In this document: piece by piece, positions 1-5,722 of the stretch
Layout: every line of letters begins with the position of its first letter
Position numbering within the stretch: position 1 is the stretch's first letter
IMG/VR virus record: IMGVR_UViG_2695420503_000022
DNA from: a virus
Taxonomy: Duplodnaviria > Heunggongvirae > Uroviricota > Caudoviricetes
Length of the DNA stretch: 5,722 bases
Direction: 5' to 3' (one strand)
The notes under the pieces: model-generated
The model's database searches: none
What the model was told of the DNA's origin: nothing
The model's input: only the letters and a program-made list of their open reading frames with translations
Position numbers and translations under genes: made by a program

Positions 1-66
1 GCAACCCTGACAAAAGTTGGGCGGGATATTCTTGCGAAATCGACCGTTGCCGCCGTTATCGAATAA
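1..66 (+). pseudogene. Orphan 3' end of a second side-tail-fibre constant-region copy, ending at TAA 64..66 (left boundary off-window)
   Basis: Frame 1 reads [21 protein letters not shown]. Nt 1..65 are the exact reverse complement of 3972..4036 inside the minus-strand stf gene (...[26 protein letters not shown]...). Where the active gene continues TAC CTC (Y L), this copy has TAA followed by an A-run. Confidence 0.6.
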
Positions 67-90
67 AAAAAAAAAACGGAAACGGTAAAC
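56..90. other. Degenerate crossover-site relic of recombinant (inverted-state) type: Sc-side half-site, A-tract in place of the core, then the Sv'-side flank
   Basis: 56..65 TTATCGAATA equals the Sc-proximal half of the 3956..3981 site (reverse complement). 78..90 GGAAACGGTAAAC is identical to 897..909 (end of the 875..900 site plus first Sv' codons). The two matches are colinear with no gap, but the 12 nt between them are A11C instead of CCTCGGTTTACA. Confidence 0.55.
65..76. repeat. A12 homopolymer tract
   Basis: Twelve consecutive A directly visible; it occupies the position of the crossover-site core in the relic. Confidence 0.9.
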
Positions 91-139
91 TTTTGAACCT
101 TATCCCGCGGCGTTACATGGTCAATTTGATTCCATTTCC

Positions 140-439
140 ATGTTTTACCTTCTTCACTGCCTGCCTGGAAATATATCTACAAAAAGCTGTGTAATACGCA
201 ATGCGGCGCAGGCCTTAACTGACGATGGAACTCTATACGGAGCCACAATTCTTGGCGATGGAGTTGTGCACAATAGCTTCGGTCAAAAACTGATGCGCAT
301 TTACAATCAGAAAGGCATCTTTTCAAACACAAAAGATTCCGAAGAAGGCTTAACACATATACTCTCAGAGCATTTCGAGAATGTTAAAACCAAGGTTCAA
401 GGTACTGTAGTAATGTTTTCCGCTTCAGGGAAAAAATAG
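140..439 (+). CDS. Hypothetical 99-aa protein, unassigned; possible cargo/moron gene
   Basis: Only sizeable ORF in the 67..493 gap; stop TAG 437..439. No purine-rich Shine-Dalgarno within 15 nt of the ATG (tttgattccatttccATG). No recognisable family from the translation. Composition looks AT-richer than the tail-fibre genes. Confidence 0.3.
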   Translation: MFYLLHCLPGNISTKSCVIRNAAQALTDDGTLYGATILGDGVVHNSFGQKLMRIYNQKGIFSNTKDSEEGLTHILSEHFENVKTKVQGTVVMFSASGKK

Positions 440-446
440 CATCCAA

Positions 447-479
447 CCGCAGCACGTTCTTGCTTAAGACGTGCTGCGG
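447..479. terminator. Strong stem-loop (11-bp perfect stem ccgcagcacgt / acgtgctgcgg); probable terminator of the ancestral stf-tfa operon (minus strand)
   Basis: Perfect 11-bp inverted repeat with 11-nt loop. It lies 15 nt 3' of the tfa-remnant stop (494..496, minus) and 8 nt 3' of the ORF99 stop (plus). On the minus strand a T6 run follows about 10 nt after the stem; no T-run on the plus strand, so not a canonical intrinsic terminator in either direction. Confidence 0.4.
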
Positions 480-493
480 CATAATCCCAATGA

Positions 494-586
494 TTACTCC
501 CTGACAGGGTTCGTAGGCCACTCAATATCAGGTGCAGTTGATGTATCAACACGGTTCAGCAACACCCGATACTTTTTCCAGGCTTC
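494..586 (-). pseudogene. tfa: C-terminal remnant (~30 codons) of a third tail-fibre assembly (Tfa) gene, fused in frame behind the invertase remnant
   Basis: Minus-strand translation in the pin frame reads [30 protein letters not shown] (stop 494..496). It shares the E-W-x-x-Y ... RVDT ... EWP pattern with the C-termini of both in-window tfa genes ([25 protein letters not shown]; [27 protein letters not shown]) and matches my recollection of the lambda Tfa C-terminus. Confidence 0.7.
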
Positions 587-820
587 CACCACCAGCACGA
601 CAAGATGCCGCATACAGTGAACCAGTCAGTCCAGTTTTCAGACAACCAGTGCGTCACCTTTTTGAAGGCGCTTTAAAGCACGTTTTAATCCAGGTCGGCC
701 TGTCCTTGTTCCGCTTAATTTATCTTCAAATATTTGTTCATATCCTGCACAAACAAGAGCGTTTCGTTGCAGATCTGTATTCTGGTCATTTGTTGATACC
801 CTTACATAGCCAATCAGCAC
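587..820 (-). pseudogene. pin: Serine DNA invertase (Pin/Gin/Hin/Cin family) remnant: N-terminal ~78 codons with two in-frame TGA stops, 3' part deleted
   Basis: Translation [76 protein letters not shown] matches the invertase N-terminus as I recall it (MLIGYVRVSTNDQ...DTLVVWKLDRLGRSMKHLISLVGE), with TGA at 638..640 where Trp is expected and TGA at 626..628 where Arg is expected. Likely start is GTG 818..820 preceded by GGAG (the ORF track extends to another GTG at 844). The catalytic Ser in YVRVSTNDQ is present, but the rest of the catalytic domain and the C-terminal DNA-binding domain are absent. Confidence 0.8.
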
Positions 821-874
821 GCTGAATCTCCCGTCCAAAAGCACAAATCATGCCATACAGGCCAGAAACCGCCA

Positions 875-900
875 TTATCTAAAACCTCGGTTTACAGGAA
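875..900. other. 26-bp invertase crossover site (gix/pix-like), invertase-proximal
   Basis: TTATCTAAAACC TC GGTTTACAGGAA: imperfect dyad around a 2-bp core. It matches the gix/hix-type site as I recall it and matches the reverse complement of 3956..3981 at 22 of 26 positions. It is read in frame into the Sv' cassette. Confidence 0.8.
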
Positions 901-1914
901 ACGGTAAACAAGGCTGGTAACGCCGTTCAGCGTTCCGGCGATAAAATGACCGGAGAACTGAAAATTGGCACGGTGAATGCGCTGCGAATTTTCAATGATG
1001 CCTTCGGTCTTATTTTCCGTCGTTCAGAAGATTTTCTTCATTTCATTCCGACGGCTGAAGGACAAGGCGAAAACGGTGATATAGGCCCATTAAGGCCATT
1101 CGCTATAAATCTGAGAACAGGTGCTATATCTGTCAGCCACGGGGCCAAAATTGATGGTGGGCTGGCGCTTGGTACAGATAACGCACTGGGCGGTAATTCC
1201 ATTACTCTCGGAGATAACGACACTGGTATTAAACAGGGCGGCGACGGTGTCCTTTTATTCTATTCAAATGGACAACTGGCATTTGGGCTTCAACCCGCAT
1301 CTGCTGATTTTTATAAGCGGGTTGCATATATTCATCAGGGAATAATTCCTGATGGAAGTGGCGCATTTGCAGACCAGTTGAATAATGCCACCGCGCCTTT
1401 TGTTCAGACGCAGTTTGCCTGGAATCCCACTCCTGGTGGTCATTACGTGCCGATAGTTAAGGGCTTGTCCATTCGCAATGGACAGGGCTATCCCGGCGCG
1501 GTCAGCTTTGGGTATTTACTGACAGAACAGTATGGATTTCCGGTTCCATGTATTCATATGCGTGGCGATGGCGGTAATGATGCTTTATGGCAGTTTAACC
1601 CGAACGATAAATCCTTTATTTCACCGGGTGCTCTTATTGCGGGTGGCGTCCGTTATAACACCGATGGAAATATATTTGGTGGGTGCTGGGGTTCAAACTT
1701 AAATGATTACCTGAATAGTTCTTTTATCAGAAATGTGCGTCTGGGAGGCAGACGTTCTGACACATTATATCGCGGAGGACTTTGCGAACCAGGTAATGGT
1801 CATGTGACAACAGGATTGCAAATTATTGGTGAGGTTGATGGAGATGACTGGATGGTGTCACGACCACTACAAAAATACATTTCTGGTAACTGGTATAACG
1901 TTGAACAGGCATAG
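889..1914 (+). CDS. Alternative tail-fibre C-terminal receptor-binding cassette (Sv'), promoterless and start-less in this orientation
   Basis: Open frame runs continuously from the crossover core (GGT TTA CAG GAA ACG ...) to TAG 1912..1914; the ATG at 946 is in this frame but probably incidental. Shares ALGGNSI[TV]LGDNDTG[IF]KQ[GN]GDG and a C-terminal QKYI[SN]G[NT]WYNV with the expressed cassette. Inversion would fuse it to the stf constant region. Confidence 0.8.
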   Translation, partial: GLQETVNKAGNAVQRSGDKMTGELKIGTVNALRIFNDAFGLIFRRSEDFLHFIPTAEGQGENGDIGPLRPFAINLRTGAISVSHGAKIDGGLALGTDNALGGNSITLGDNDTGIKQGGDGVLLFYSNGQLAFGLQPASADFYKRVAYIHQGIIPDGSGAFADQLNNATAPFVQTQFAWNPTPGGHYVPIVKGLSIRNGQGYPGAVSFGYLLTEQYGFPVPCIHMRGDGGNDALWQFNPNDKSFISPGALIAGGVRYNTDGNIFGGCWGSNLNDYLNSSFIRNVRLGGRRSDTLYRGGLCEPGNGHVTTGLQIIGEVDGDDWMVSRPLQKYISGNWYNVEQA

Positions 1915-1929
1915 CCATCAGGAGAATAT

Positions 1930-2457
1930 ATGCAACATCTGAAAAATATTACCGCCGGAAACCCCAAAACCATTGAGCAGTATCAGCTTACGAAAAAAGC
2001 TGGCGTTATCTGGCTATATACAGAAGACGGTAAAAACTGGTATGACGAATTAAAAAACTTTCAGGATGATACTTTAAAAATAGCTTATGACCAGAAGGGG
2101 ATTATTCGTTGTATTGAGAAAGACGTATCAACACTTAACCCTGACGGGTTAAGTGTTGTTGAGTTACCGAATATAACAGCCAACCGTCGCGCCGATATCT
2201 CGGGAAACTGGAAGTTTCTGGATGGTAAAGTAGTAAAGCGGGAATATACAAAACAGGAACTGCAACAGCAGGCAGAGTTACAAAAAGCCGCTTTGCTTTC
2301 CGAAGCGGAGTCTGTGATTCAACCGCTGGAACGTGCTGTCAGACTGAATATGGCAACTGATGAGGAACGCACACGACTGGAATCATGGGAACGCTACAGC
2401 GTTATGGTCAGCCGTGTGGATACTGCAAAGCCTGAATGGCCACAGAAACCAGAATAA
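1930..2457 (+). CDS. tfa: Tail-fibre assembly chaperone partnered with Sv' (Tfa/U' family)
   Basis: 175 aa; AGGAG at 1920..1924 five nt before the ATG. N-terminus [38 protein letters not shown] is a close paralogue of the minus-strand tfa and Mu U-like; typical Tfa C-terminal motif. Confidence 0.85.
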
Positions 2458-2466
2458 CAACAAATT

Positions 2467-2486
2467 AAGGCCCGTACGGGCCTTTT
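2467..2486. terminator. Bidirectional intrinsic terminator between the convergent tfa genes
   Basis: aaGGCCCgtacGGGCCtttt: GC stem with a 4-nt loop, T-run on the plus strand and a T-rich tail (aatttgttg) on the minus strand. It sits in the 30-bp gap between stop 2455..2457 and stop 2488..2490. Confidence 0.55.
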
Positions 2487-2487
2487 C

Positions 2488-3021
2488 TTATTCTGGTGGT
2501 TCCGGGAATGTTACAGGAAGAACCGAGGTATCAGTTGTCTCAACCTGTTGCACGTATCGCATCCAGTTCATCAGTTGCTGTCTGTCTGAATCAGTGATAA
2601 TCCCCAAAGTAAGCTGTGTTTGCCAGAACTGCGTTTTTTCTCTGGCCTGCTGTAATAATATTTTTTTCTGGTTTTCCGTCTGTAGGCGCAACTCTTCTTC
2701 GGTATATACACGTTTAATGACTGCGCCATCTTTAAACATCCATTTACCTGAGTCGTCAGCACGCCGGTTGGCGGTAATATCAGGAATCTCAACGACGCTA
2801 TAACCTTCAGGGTTAAGTGTGGAGGCATCTTTGGTTATGGCAACAATAATATTATTTTCATCGTAAACAATCTTTATGGTGTCTGGCTGAAAGTTTTTCA
2901 CTTCCTCATACCAGTTTTTTTCGTCCTCAGAGTAAAGCCAGATAACTCCGTGTTTCTTTGTTAACTCATACTGTTCCAGTGTTTTAGCATTACCCGCTTT
3001 TATGTTCTTTAAGTGCATCAT
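2488..3021 (-). CDS. tfa: Tail-fibre assembly chaperone for the currently expressed fibre (Tfa/U family)
   Basis: 177 aa; its ATG (3019..3021) lies one nt after the stf stop (3023..3025), indicating translational coupling. N-terminus [59 protein letters not shown] resembles Mu U / Tfa proteins as I recall them. Confidence 0.9.
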
Positions 3022-3022
3022 A

Positions 3023-5722
3023 TTAAACGCTCGCTACATTATACCAGGTGCCATTTATATACTTTTGAACGGGTCTGTAATAAACGCCCGCTATATTATC
3101 GGCAGAGTTAGACCCTGTATCCTGAACATTAATACCAGACAATACATGACCTGAAGGGCACCGGAAATACCATGTTTGCCAGTTGTTCACTCCATAATAT
3201 TGCTGTGAACCAAGTCGAACATCTTTCACATAACGGGAATCAAAGTTACCGTAATCCGAGGGGTTAACACGCCCTGTAATATTTATGGTTTTATTACTTT
3301 GAATGCTTCCGGAGACAAAGCGCATAACATGGACGTTATTAGCATAAACATCCAGATTACCATCGCCATTTTGTTTAAAGCCCGTGTCATTATCACCCAA
3401 TACAATCGAATTACCGCCAAGAGCACTGGATGTTCCGATACCCAGTGTACCATTCAGTTGACCACCAGATAACGGCAGTGCACCAACATCTCCTGCTGAA
3501 GGTTTTCTGGTGGTGGTGTAAAATTCGGACCAGTCGGCTTCAAAACCATAACCATCACGGGCTGAACGATAAAAAACACCGCCATTTTTATAATTAATCC
3601 GAAACTGAGCTGCAGGACAACTTCCTTCTCCCATATAAAAATGAATAATTAACGTTGATGCACCACTAATAGTTGCGTTATAGGCTCCGCTACTCCAGTT
3701 CCATCCAACTGCTTTATCATTCGCAACGGTGCTTCCTGTTTTCCCTAAGGCAAACGCACCAACATGACTTGCTTTTAATGTGATATCGGAGGAACCATCA
3801 AAAGCCACATTGCTTATTTTCCTGGCAGTTTTTAATTTTGCAGCTGTAGAAGCATTGCCGGATAGTTCACCAGAAAGGCCACCGCTGAATGTTTGTCGAT
3901 TAGTCCAGGTATTCGCTGTACTGAGTAACGGTATTTTCTCCCCGCTTGTGCCGAGTTCTCGTAAACCGAGGTATTCGATAACGGCGGCAACGGTCGATTT
4001 CGCAAGAATATCCCGCCCAACTTTTGTCAGGGTTGCCAGACTGGCAACATCATTCCCCGTAAAATACGGAAACCTGTCTGCCGCAGTAGCAAGCCCGGCC
4101 AGCGCCGTCAGGGTGGCATCTTTCGGTTGCTTACCCGCAAGCGCGTTAGTCATGGTGGTCGCAAAATTCGGGTCGTTGCCCAACGCCGCAGCCAGCTCGT
4201 TCAGCGTATTCAGTGCGTCAGGCGACGAGTCCACGAGGGCAGCGATCGCAGCCATAACATAAGCCGTGCTTGCGATTTGGGTATTATTCGTTCCCTGTCG
4301 CGCAGTTGGTGTTGTTGGCGTTCCGGTCAGTGCAGGACTATTTAAGGGCGCTTTCTTGTTCGTTTCACCCATTACCGCCTTAACCGCTTTTGGCGTTGCC
4401 GCCAGTGACTCGGAAGTGCTGTTGGTCGCACTGCTGAGCTGTACTATCCCCTTTTTCGTCGTGCTCGCATCCTCCAGCGCCACGGCGGATGCAATATCCT
4501 CTGCCCGTTTTGCTGCTGTCTCGGCGCGCGTTGCCGCGGATTCCGCCGTACTTTTGCTCTGAGCTGCCGCCGTCACACTACCAGCTGCCTCTGATGCTTT
4601 CATTGTTGCTGTCGTGGCACTACCTTTCGCTGCTGACGCTTGTCTGGTCGCCTCATCTTTTGAAGCAGACGCAGATGATGCCGATGACGCCGCTGAACTG
4701 GCTGACGATGCGGCTGCCGCCTTAGAGGAAGCAGCATTGTCTGCTGAAGTCTTTGCATTTGTTTCAGAGGTTTTTGCTGCAGAAGCAGACCTCGCTGCTG
4801 CAGTGGCTTGCTCAGTGGCTTTGCCAGCCTTCGTTGTGGCTGTTGAAGCGGATGATGCGGCGCTTTCTGCCGATTTTCCGGCGGCGGTGGCACTGGCTGA
4901 GGCCTGCCCGGCACTTGTTGACGCGGCACTGGCAGACGACGCAGCCGCTGTTTTTGAGCCTGCCGCAGCCGAGGCGCTCTGTCCCGCTGCCGTTTCAGAA
5001 GACCTGGCGTTTGTCTCAGACGTCTTTGCCGCCTTCGCGGAATTGCCTGCCGCCGTTGCCGAGGAAGCGGCACTACTGGCGCTTGATGATGCGTTCGTTT
5101 CTGATGATTTCGCTGCCTCTTTTGAGGCCGCCGCATCCCGGGCTGAGGTGGCTGCTTCTGACGCCTTCGTGGTCGCGGCGGATGCAGAAGTGGCTGCTGA
5201 TTGTTGTGACGCTGCCGCATTCGTTTCTGACGTTTTCGCCGCAGCGGCACTGGTAGCTGCCGCGCTTTTTGAGGACTCTGCAGCAGCAGCACTTTTCGAT
5301 GCTTCACTGGCCTTTGTTGATGCCGTTCCTGCGCTGGAAGACGCTGACTGAGCCGACGACGCGGCCTGTCCGGCTGACGTGCTGGCGGCACGTGCTGAGG
5401 CTGCAGCATCGGTTGCATGAGTTACCGCCTCGCTGGCTGATGCACTGGCATCGCTGGCTGATTTTTTCGCGGCTGCCGTATTCTGTGCAACCGCGGAGGC
5501 GTTACGTGACACTTCTTCCACCATCTGCTCAAAGCGGCGCAGTGCCTCCGGTCGGACATCATCCTCCGTCATGGCACCGAGAAAATCATTCAGCGTACCT
5601 GGTCTGGAACCTTCATAGACGGTAATGGTCCCGGCATGTGAAGGCGGAAAACCTTCAACCAGCAGGGTGACGCTGTACTGACCATGCTCAACATCCATGC
5701 TGTAACGTCCGGCTTCATCCGG
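3023..5722 (-). CDS. stf: Side tail fibre protein (lambda Stf-like), 5'-partial: constant region (3970..5722) fused through the crossover site to the Sv cassette (3023..3967)
   Basis: The open frame continues past the first in-window Met to the window edge (...[37 protein letters not shown]...). N-terminal domain and the KTSETNA-containing Ala/Ser-rich shaft resemble lambda Stf / E. coli StfR as I recall them. The C-terminal part carries the [13 protein letters not shown] motif and ends ...[14 protein letters not shown]. Confidence 0.9.
3956..3981. other. 26-bp invertase crossover site inside the stf coding sequence (codons I-E-Y-L-G-L-R-E)
   Basis: Plus strand TTCTCGTAAACC GA GGTATTCGATAA; its reverse complement TTATCGAATACC TC GGTTTACGAGAA matches the 875..900 site at 22/26 with an identical TC core and lies in inverted orientation to it. 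Confidence 0.8.
3972..4036. repeat. Right arm of a 65-bp perfect inverted repeat (left arm 1..65)
   Basis: Reverse complement of 3972..4036 is identical to 1..65; identity breaks at position 66 versus 3971. Confidence 0.85.
4530..5500 (-). repeat. Low-complexity Ala/Ser/Thr-rich periodic repeat region encoding the fibre shaft (approximate bounds)
   Basis: The protein shows reiterated A-A-K-T/S-S-E-T-N-A units and A/S/T runs. At DNA level, degenerate ~27-bp repeats of the type gcNgcaaaaacNtcNgaaacaaatgc (minus sense) recur at about 4747, 5030, 5095 and 5225. The GC-rich, stop-poor sequence generates long spurious ORFs in other frames. Confidence 0.7.

Follow-up and report, generated by a model that had tools for sequence, protein, structure and literature searches.

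The window analysed here is the whole 5,722-nucleotide (nt) stretch of IMG/VR virus record IMGVR_UViG_2695420503_000022 (Caudoviricetes), which comprises the tail-fibre end of a lambda-like E. coli prophage. On its minus strand, a DNA invertase gene (pin) is cut at nt 232 and joined, without homology, to codon 164 of a tail fibre assembly gene (tfa). Taken as a whole, this joint is best explained as a recombination scar that has no function and lies at the right-hand limit of the prophage tail-fibre region, a reading that we hold with good confidence. The scar is a pseudogene of a known kind, both halves having already been labelled pseudogene fragments by RefSeq/PGAP (Prokaryotic Genome Annotation Pipeline).

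The position of the breakpoint (588..589) is set by two parent-specific bases. In a three-way alignment, the window reads GTGCTGGTGG followed by TGGAAGCCTGG, e14-type pinE reads GTGCTGGTGG followed by AGGAGTTGCGC, and the tfa gene of the lambdoid PhiR26_1 reads CTCATTGC followed by TGGAAGCCTGG. G589 agrees with pinE and not with tfa, and T588 agrees with tfa and not with pin; the breakpoint therefore lies at 589/588, with 589 the last pin-specific base and 588 the first tfa-specific base. A sequence-only reading of this DNA had rightly recognised a joint here but had placed it at 587/586. No perfect microhomology extends across 589/588, the parents having in common only a patchy, in-register TGnnGGA. 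An invertase parent reading VLVVE, which would have meant 5 nt of microhomology, was considered and rejected: none of the eleven matches to GCTGGTGGTGGAAYTGCG was an invertase gene. No intact invertase carrying GCTGGTGGTGGAAYTGCG or GCTGGTGGTGGAA, which would have shifted the breakpoint, was found.

The invertase half of the joint (589..820, minus strand) is a pin pseudogene remnant that comprises nt 1-232 from a GTG start, or 77 codons plus one base, of a gene of ~555-580 nt. Intact Mu Gin (193 amino acids) and e14-type PinE (184 amino acids) run >100 residues further, and the invertase does not, as might have been objected, end naturally at this point. The remnant matches the Pfam resolvase N-terminal domain PF00239 over profile positions 2-69 of 145 (E=2.9e-15), under half of the domain. 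It includes the active-site serine, Ser9, within VRVSTNDQ, and, ending at codon 77/78 of 184-193, has neither a complete catalytic domain nor the C-terminal helix-turn-helix. Translation of minus-strand positions 865-494 (...VLIGYVRVSTNDQ...) has the invertase homology running in phase into a Tfa C-terminus, as the earlier reading described; the continuous frame that it proposed is, however, not open from the pin start, being interrupted by in-frame TGA codons at 640-638 (W61 to stop) and 628-626 (R65 to stop). PGAP annotates a 60-amino-acid 'recombinase family protein' at 638-820. Judged by its sequence, the pin invertase is dead. In strain ATCC 43896, a relative with this joint shares the stop at codon 65 and keeps TGG at codon 61; decay of pin therefore went on after the join. 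The remnant also has a hybrid make-up: over gene nt 1-190 (~631-820) it agrees with Mu gin at 183/190 positions and with pinE at 136/190, while nt 191-232 (~589-630) match pinE at 37/42 and Mu gin at 20/42 (88% vs 48%). The switch from Gin to PinE falls in a conserved GGTGAC..CTGGAAACTGGA block, and 4-5 clustered substitutions at ~612-625 are followed by 35 nt identical to pinE.

The other half of the joint is a tfa 3' remnant (494..588, minus strand) that starts with TG from the Leu164 codon, continues through the final 30 codons and closes with the stop TAA (496-494). It matches the Pfam family PF02413 (Caudo_TAP) over profile positions 104-130 of 131 (E=5.1e-13; 49.8 bits against a cut-off of 22.1), so that the doubt raised over whether the translation of 494..586 resembles Tfa at all is settled in favour of significant similarity. 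Its amino acids are identical to those of PhiR26_1 Tfa at 30/30 positions and to those of lambda Tfa at 27/30, and its DNA is 86% identical to lambda tfa. Complete Tfa proteins have ~175-194 amino acids (194 in PhiR26_1 and lambda); the stub is a gene fragment of the last 30 codons only, and PGAP calls it 'tail fiber assembly protein, incomplete, missing N-terminus' in strain WS3294A. It adjoins the pin stump and not a co-directional tail-fibre gene; in PhiR26_1, tfa follows stf. The C-termini of the two intact tfa genes of the window (1930-2457, plus strand; 2488-3021, minus strand) differ from that of the stub, which is, as proposed from the sequence alone, a third and distinct Tfa C-terminus. 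The Trp codon of the stub (EAWKK) is TAG in 12 of the 31 loci with a pin-tfa joint in IMG/VR, among the matches listed (e.g. L051, L056, L062, L065), and the stub is therefore drifting as a pseudogene.

Turning to the parental contexts, the lambdoid PhiR26_1 carries stf, a complete tfa, a hairpin, a ybcY-like methyltransferase gene and a tfa stub, in that order. Window positions 91-591 match the 3' end of this complete tfa and the methyltransferase gene at 99.8% identity, and positions 4377-5290 match the stf at 92%. Between them lie window positions 592-4376 (3.8 kilobases, kb); PhiR26_1 has 2.1 kb in their place, made up of the first 487 nt of tfa and the last 1.6 kb of stf. This is the architecture that had been suggested from the sequence alone, in which a cassette grafted into a lambda-like stf-tfa operon replaces the stf 3' end and the tfa 5' end. 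The pin 5' part and the left crossover site of the cassette are 92-95% identical to Mu-like gin/phages, while window positions 3961-4473 are 90% identical to the P2-like locus L006 and 90-93% identical to P2-like/Mu-like H/S fibre genes. In the right-hand zone (4377..4473, minus strand), a P2-type H gene and a lambda-type stf both align (P2 gpH at 91%; lambda stf at 78%, aligned over ~3969-4567), and the right-hand boundary is therefore a homologous crossover in a common fibre segment. In related prophages with an intact pin, the next genes are com/mom (Mu-like) or tail genes (P2-like), and never a co-directional tfa. We propose that a Mu/P2/e14-type host-range module, made up of an H-type constant-region end, a pair of 26-bp crossover sites, two alternative fibre tips (each accompanied by a tfa) and an invertase gene, would have replaced the stf 3' and tfa 5' parts in a lambdoid stf-tfa-ybcY backbone. 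One boundary of this module would have formed by homologous crossover (~4377-4473, in the stf/H segment common to lambda, P2 and Mu fibres), and the other would be the homology-free join at 589/588.

The invertible segment of this module (901..3955) holds two stf C-termini, each with a tfa. It is flanked by an inverted pair of 26-bp crossover sites with matching GA/TC cores: a left, pix/gix-like site beside the pin 5' end (TTATCTAAAACC TC GGTTTACAGGAA, 875..900) and its inverted-repeat partner inside stf (TTCTCGTAAACC GA GGTATTCGATAA, 3956..3981). The left site is 94-95% identical to the gin/G-segment boundary of Mu-like phages. In the orientation of the window, the stf C-terminus in use is an open reading frame at 3023-3955 (minus strand) and its tfa lies at 2488-3021; the alternative stf C-terminus is an open reading frame at 946-1914 (plus strand), with its tfa at 1930-2457. 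Both tfa reading frames match Caudo_TAP over the full profile. The window orientation was found in 136 complete genomes, each with an unbroken match over at least 80% of the window, and the opposite orientation, with 100% identity across the inverted-state junction, in 243 complete genomes. In strain 4/1-1 (L012), window positions 869-3987 aligned reversed at 99.5% beside the same truncated pin and tfa stub, and isolates of one deposit series differ in orientation (4/0, window orientation, vs 4/1-1 or 4/4). Both orientations thus occur beside the same dead pin, and the cassette therefore still inverts. The flipping is presumably done in trans, by a Gin/Pin-family invertase encoded elsewhere. 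In Hin and Mu, the Fis-dependent enhancer lies inside the invertase gene, ~100 bp from a crossover site (PMC3798978). From this layout, we infer that the retained pin 5' part spans a putative Fis-dependent enhancer region (~710-775), which is 96% identical to Mu gin.

The identical joint was found in 588/5426 complete E. coli genomes (~11%), including strains of sequence type 131 (ST131) such as JJ1886, and is also present in IMG/VR contigs. It occurs at two or more chromosomal sites with different cassettes, including the potB/pepT site, and the sequence past the tfa stub varies, while the joint sequence is identical wherever examined. This distribution suggests that the joint arose once and then spread, with its surroundings recombining further. 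The exact 35-mer of the joint had 0 matches in species-representative genomes; matches of a 21-mer of the joint in representative genomes of other species were rejected, as they came from unrelated high-GC organisms only.

The invertase side of the joint ends in a Chi octamer, 5'-GCTGGTGG-3' (589..596, minus strand), which covers pin codons V75-L76-V77 and the first base of codon 78; the final pin-derived base is the 3' G of Chi. The octamer is indeed, as the sequence-only reading had it, the reverse complement of 589-596 and ends at the breakpoint, but it lies wholly in the pin part and was inherited from a PinE-type parent. Since e14-type pinE (L008 position 4045) holds the octamer at the same codons (V75-L76-V77-E78), as does locus L010, Chi was not made by the join; e14-type pinE has a second Chi at nt 171-178. 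When Chi density is compared with that of the host, neither strand of the 5.7-kb window or of the 17.6-kb locus L001 has a Chi other than the octamer at the joint, against a mean of one per 4.6 kb in E. coli K-12; many lambdoid phages have none or one (PMC12315714).

RecBCD reads Chi from the 3' side on the 3'-ended strand (PMC12315714, PMC5041463). The orientation at the joint corresponds to RecBCD arriving from lower coordinates, the tfa/prophage-end side, with the retained pin 5' part and the cassette as the spared DNA. RecBCD, entering from the tfa or prophage-end side, would degrade linear or broken DNA as far as the correctly oriented Chi in pin, and the Chi-protected end would then be ligated to tfa, either by homology-facilitated illegitimate recombination or by RecBCD/LigA alternative end-joining. 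Homology-facilitated illegitimate recombination in E. coli involves 0-1 nt of homology at the illegitimate end, with Chi protecting linear DNA (PMC3240628), and end-joining that is RecBCD-dependent and RecA-independent has also been described in E. coli (bioRxiv 10.1101/605246). The earlier suggestion of RecBCD-promoted recombination is thus narrowed: because the joint is without homology, it is not a Chi-stimulated homologous exchange, and at most RecBCD resection was halted at Chi and the end then joined illegitimately. To the proposal that RecBCD and Chi determined where the invertase side of the joint ends, we give slightly less than even credence.

A second joint was found at the same Chi. 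IMG/VR was scanned with a pinE 21-mer whose last eight bases are this Chi, and the downstream sequence was read in 124 loci; among the matches listed, ~91 continued into an intact invertase, 31 into the tfa joint (several alleles) and 2 into another joint. In this second joint, GCTGGTGG/ACGAAGATTT... (GCTGGTGG/ACGAAGATTTAGAGC...), a pinE that is otherwise open breaks off at nt 232/233, and unrelated AT-rich cargo comes next. The setting is an e14-like remnant (L063, L070; L171 5889-6125, strain H1827/12, near paoCD), and the joint occurs in 12 complete genomes, where PGAP gives 'pinE, incomplete, missing C-terminus' (e.g. H1827/12). The AT-rich genes past this joint have no assigned function; one predicted protein has 365 amino acids. 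Within the same listed matches, two of four independent 3' truncations of pinE fall 0-1 nt after this Chi, and the other two lie at nt 267 and nt 292. An end of pinE homology at nt 440 in L150 was discarded as a truncation, being divergence within an intact gene. The second, unrelated joint at the same Chi makes Chi-limited resection with non-homologous joining plausible, if just short of evenly balanced. More tentative is the wider proposal that Chi in PinE codons 75-78 is a recurrent natural RecBCD stop, with Chi-terminated ends joined without homology and independent scars left at the same nucleotide; we consider this conceivable but doubtful.

The plainest alternative is that the joint is an ordinary illegitimate-recombination scar and that the position of Chi is coincidental, for which we judge the chances to be even. 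CTG-GTG-GTG (Leu-Val-Val) consists of common E. coli codons, and Chi simply lies in the conserved HLVVLVEEL of PinE-type invertases, as inherited coding sequence and not as a product of the join. With two Chi per 555-nt pinE, a random breakpoint would fall 0-6 nt from one in ~1-3% of cases, and the proximity was noticed after the fact. Coincidence accounts less readily for the second, unrelated joint 0-1 nt from the same Chi, for an orientation that is the one protecting the retained side, and for the presence of only this Chi in 17.6 kb. Several points nevertheless weigh against our reconstruction. Replication is thin: because the hypothesis came from the first joint, it amounts to one of three further truncations at Chi, not two of four, with a target of 2-7 nt in 323 nt (p ~0.02-0.06), and the sample, again the matches listed, was selected by a 21-mer ending at Chi. 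The truncations at nt 267 and nt 292 are without Chi, no joints after the first pinE Chi (nt 171-178) were found in 77 loci, and no other remnant boundary in L001 has Chi, the locus holding one. RecBCD nicks 4-6 nt 3' of Chi (PMC5041463) and the joints here are at 0-1 nt; because they lie nearer Chi than this canonical nick, extra trimming or a 'degrade up to Chi' mode would be needed. No report of natural junctions sited at Chi was found in the literature searched. As for the module itself, no intact ancestor of this pin lineage was found in the 5426 complete genomes, and the putative enhancer region has one Fis-consensus match only (736-750).

The route by which the tfa tail came to lie next to pin admits a further account, in which a later deletion ran from pin nt 233 to tfa codon 164 in a lambdoid ancestor that already held the cassette with an intact pin, this pin preceding a further stf-tfa pair or a whole co-integrated P2/Mu-like genome. 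Deletion and graft give the same end product; the prophage end, full of tfa 3' stubs and with a DUF4376 stub, speaks of repeated rearrangement there; and a deletion would agree just as well with a chromosome break at which RecBCD resection stopped at Chi and end-joining made the repair. A deletion is nonetheless a tentative proposition. Among the complete genomes, pin of this lineage was never seen intact, nor was any pin seen with a tfa downstream of it on the same strand; com/mom or tail genes come after the invertase in intact Mu-like/P2-like relatives; and the tfa side is without a plus-strand Chi. The ancestor search used as its query a chimera of the window pin part and a P2-like 3' half; its best full-length matches, in Mu-like or P2-like prophages, had 82-83% identity and were not accepted as the ancestor. 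Because no intact ancestor was found, neither the order of events nor the choice between graft and deletion is fixed, and both routes offered by the sequence-only reading fit the present data. Locus L010 (4950-5800, WWCOL-256) was considered as an intermediate and ruled out as a different, Rac-like arrangement; it holds an intact lambda-type tfa, then 60 nt, then a same-strand internal pinE fragment (~codon 27 to nt 292), near rnlAB. A coding role for the fusion, as a functional small protein from the 39-amino-acid reading frame at 613-494 or as a Pin-Tfa chimera, is scarcely credible. The fusion is in phase and the 39-codon frame has an ATG start, but an in-phase join has a chance of 1 in 3, two TGA codons lie upstream in pin, no Shine-Dalgarno-like sequence precedes the ATG at 613, TAG interrupts the tfa stub in the 12 of 31 related loci listed above, and the PGAP annotation is of pseudogene fragments; nothing in its sequence points to a function for the in-phase fusion itself. 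Formation of the joint by the invertase at a pseudo-crossover site, or by an assembly artefact, is highly improbable: the invertase and its sites do adjoin the joint and the first 90 bases of the window look anomalous, but the sequence around 589/588 is unlike the 26-bp crossover sites, and 588 genomes, each finished independently, share this very joint.

Apart from the scar, the window has the following layout. Past position 90, only two single-base gaps separate it from strain WS3294A (99.96% identity); there, the region is flanked by J-lom on one side and by the prophage end beside ompW'/yciE on the other. From high to low coordinates on the minus strand, the order is stf, its tfa, the inverted tfa, the inverted stf C-terminus, the crossover site and the invertase start (820), the long stf reading frame running from 5698 to 3023 with the crossover site 3956-3981 inside it. 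WS3294A has one base fewer in the T4 run (1722) and in the G4 run (2097), and because of these missing bases PGAP marks its alternative stf tip and the accompanying tfa as frameshifted; in the window, both reading frames are open (322 and 175 amino acids).

Beyond the tfa stub, a hairpin with an 11-bp stem, an 11-nt loop and a T-run after it on the minus strand (447..479) lies just 3' of the tfa stop; the minus strand of 420-500 folds at -30.7 kcal/mol (z = -3.5). The hairpin, identical in PhiR26_1, probably terminated the stf-tfa operon originally, came in together with the tfa stub and is probably still active as the operon's terminator. A simple promoter/terminator scan of window positions 1-1000 found nothing; it missed this hairpin because the 11-nt loop is outside the range of the scan. 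Next, at 91..439 (plus strand), are the 3' two-thirds of a ybcY-like class I S-adenosylmethionine (SAM) methyltransferase gene, part of the lambdoid backbone to which the tfa stub belongs (full gene, L001 5681-6349). In L001, this gene is bracketed by direct repeats, ~90% identical, each consisting of a tfa 3' end and hairpin (5297-5531 and 6357-6508), the second copy of the pair (6357-6508) corresponding to window 445-588, and a further DUF4376 stub lies beyond the repeats. The stacked tfa tails at the prophage end suggest repeated recombination at tfa 3' ends. At the very start of the window, positions 1-65 repeat, without mismatch and in inverted orientation, the end of the stf constant part (3972-4036); twelve A's come next, and then cggaaacggtaaac, a copy of 896-909. 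The block 1-90 resembles an inverted-state stf-site-tip junction with the 13-nt core acctcggtttaca swapped for aaaaaaaaaaaac, and is attached at position 91, partway through the methyltransferase gene. The 90/91 join was absent from the 5426 complete E. coli genomes and from the metagenome and viral contigs searched, and the block may stem from misassembly or from a rearrangement unique to this DNA.

By itself, the joint adds a further example to the modular exchanges among phage tail-fibre regions. The example is cleanly resolved, as both parental contexts can be named and the breakpoint is placed to one phosphodiester bond: a host-range module of contractile-tailed phages has been welded into a lambda-type prophage that is now present in ~11% of finished E. 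coli genomes. That the cassette flips although its own invertase is dead matters when phase-variable phage or tailocin host range is inferred from annotation alone. With two unrelated joints at one Chi, the setting of natural illegitimate end-points by RecBCD and Chi becomes a directly testable idea. If the wider proposal of a recurrent RecBCD stop at this Chi is true, Chi would shield the adjacent host-range cassette and the putative enhancer-bearing 5' part of the invertase gene from loss, and natural genomes would keep a readable record of Chi-limited illegitimate recombination.

The scar resembles the products of homology-facilitated illegitimate recombination and of RecBCD/LigA end-joining in having one homologous anchor and one join with 0-3 nt of homology; in those systems, RecBCD resects ends and Chi protects linear DNA (PMC3240628; bioRxiv 10.1101/605246). 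Unlike the scar, those joining events were laboratory ones and of very low frequency. The octamer, its strand and its orientation would fit an end made by RecBCD cutting at Chi, but the pinE 3' flank, AGGAGTT, is only partly of the purine-rich type found most active (PMC5041463).

Among known phages, PhiR26_1 is closest on the tfa side: its tfa 3' end, hairpin and methyltransferase are 99.8% identical, and its methyltransferase likewise lies between direct repeats of the tfa 3' end. It differs in that its tfa is complete and directly follows stf, whereas the window keeps the last 30 codons. The K-12 DLP12-type arrangement is presumably similar, with a lambda-type stf-tfa followed by a ybcY-like methyltransferase and a second tfa stub. 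On the cassette side, the order of elements is that of Mu G/gin, P1 C/cin and e14 P/pinE, with a constant part, a site, a tip and tfa, an inverted tfa and tip, a second site, and an invertase pointing away; the sites and the pin 5' part of the window are 92-95% identical to Mu-like phages, and both orientations occur in nature, inversion having been documented for e14 (PMC4272514). Unlike in these systems, the invertase of the window is a 232-nt stump with two stops, fused to a tfa tail, and the module sits in a lambda-like J-lom-stf backbone, where inversion is presumably carried out by an enzyme encoded elsewhere. Phage LLS, also of lambda type, has two opposed fibre genes, an intact DNA invertase and 23 Chi sites (PMC12315714). 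The prophage described here shares with LLS an invertible fibre module in a lambda-type phage, and differs from it in having, across the prophage region, one Chi and a dead invertase.

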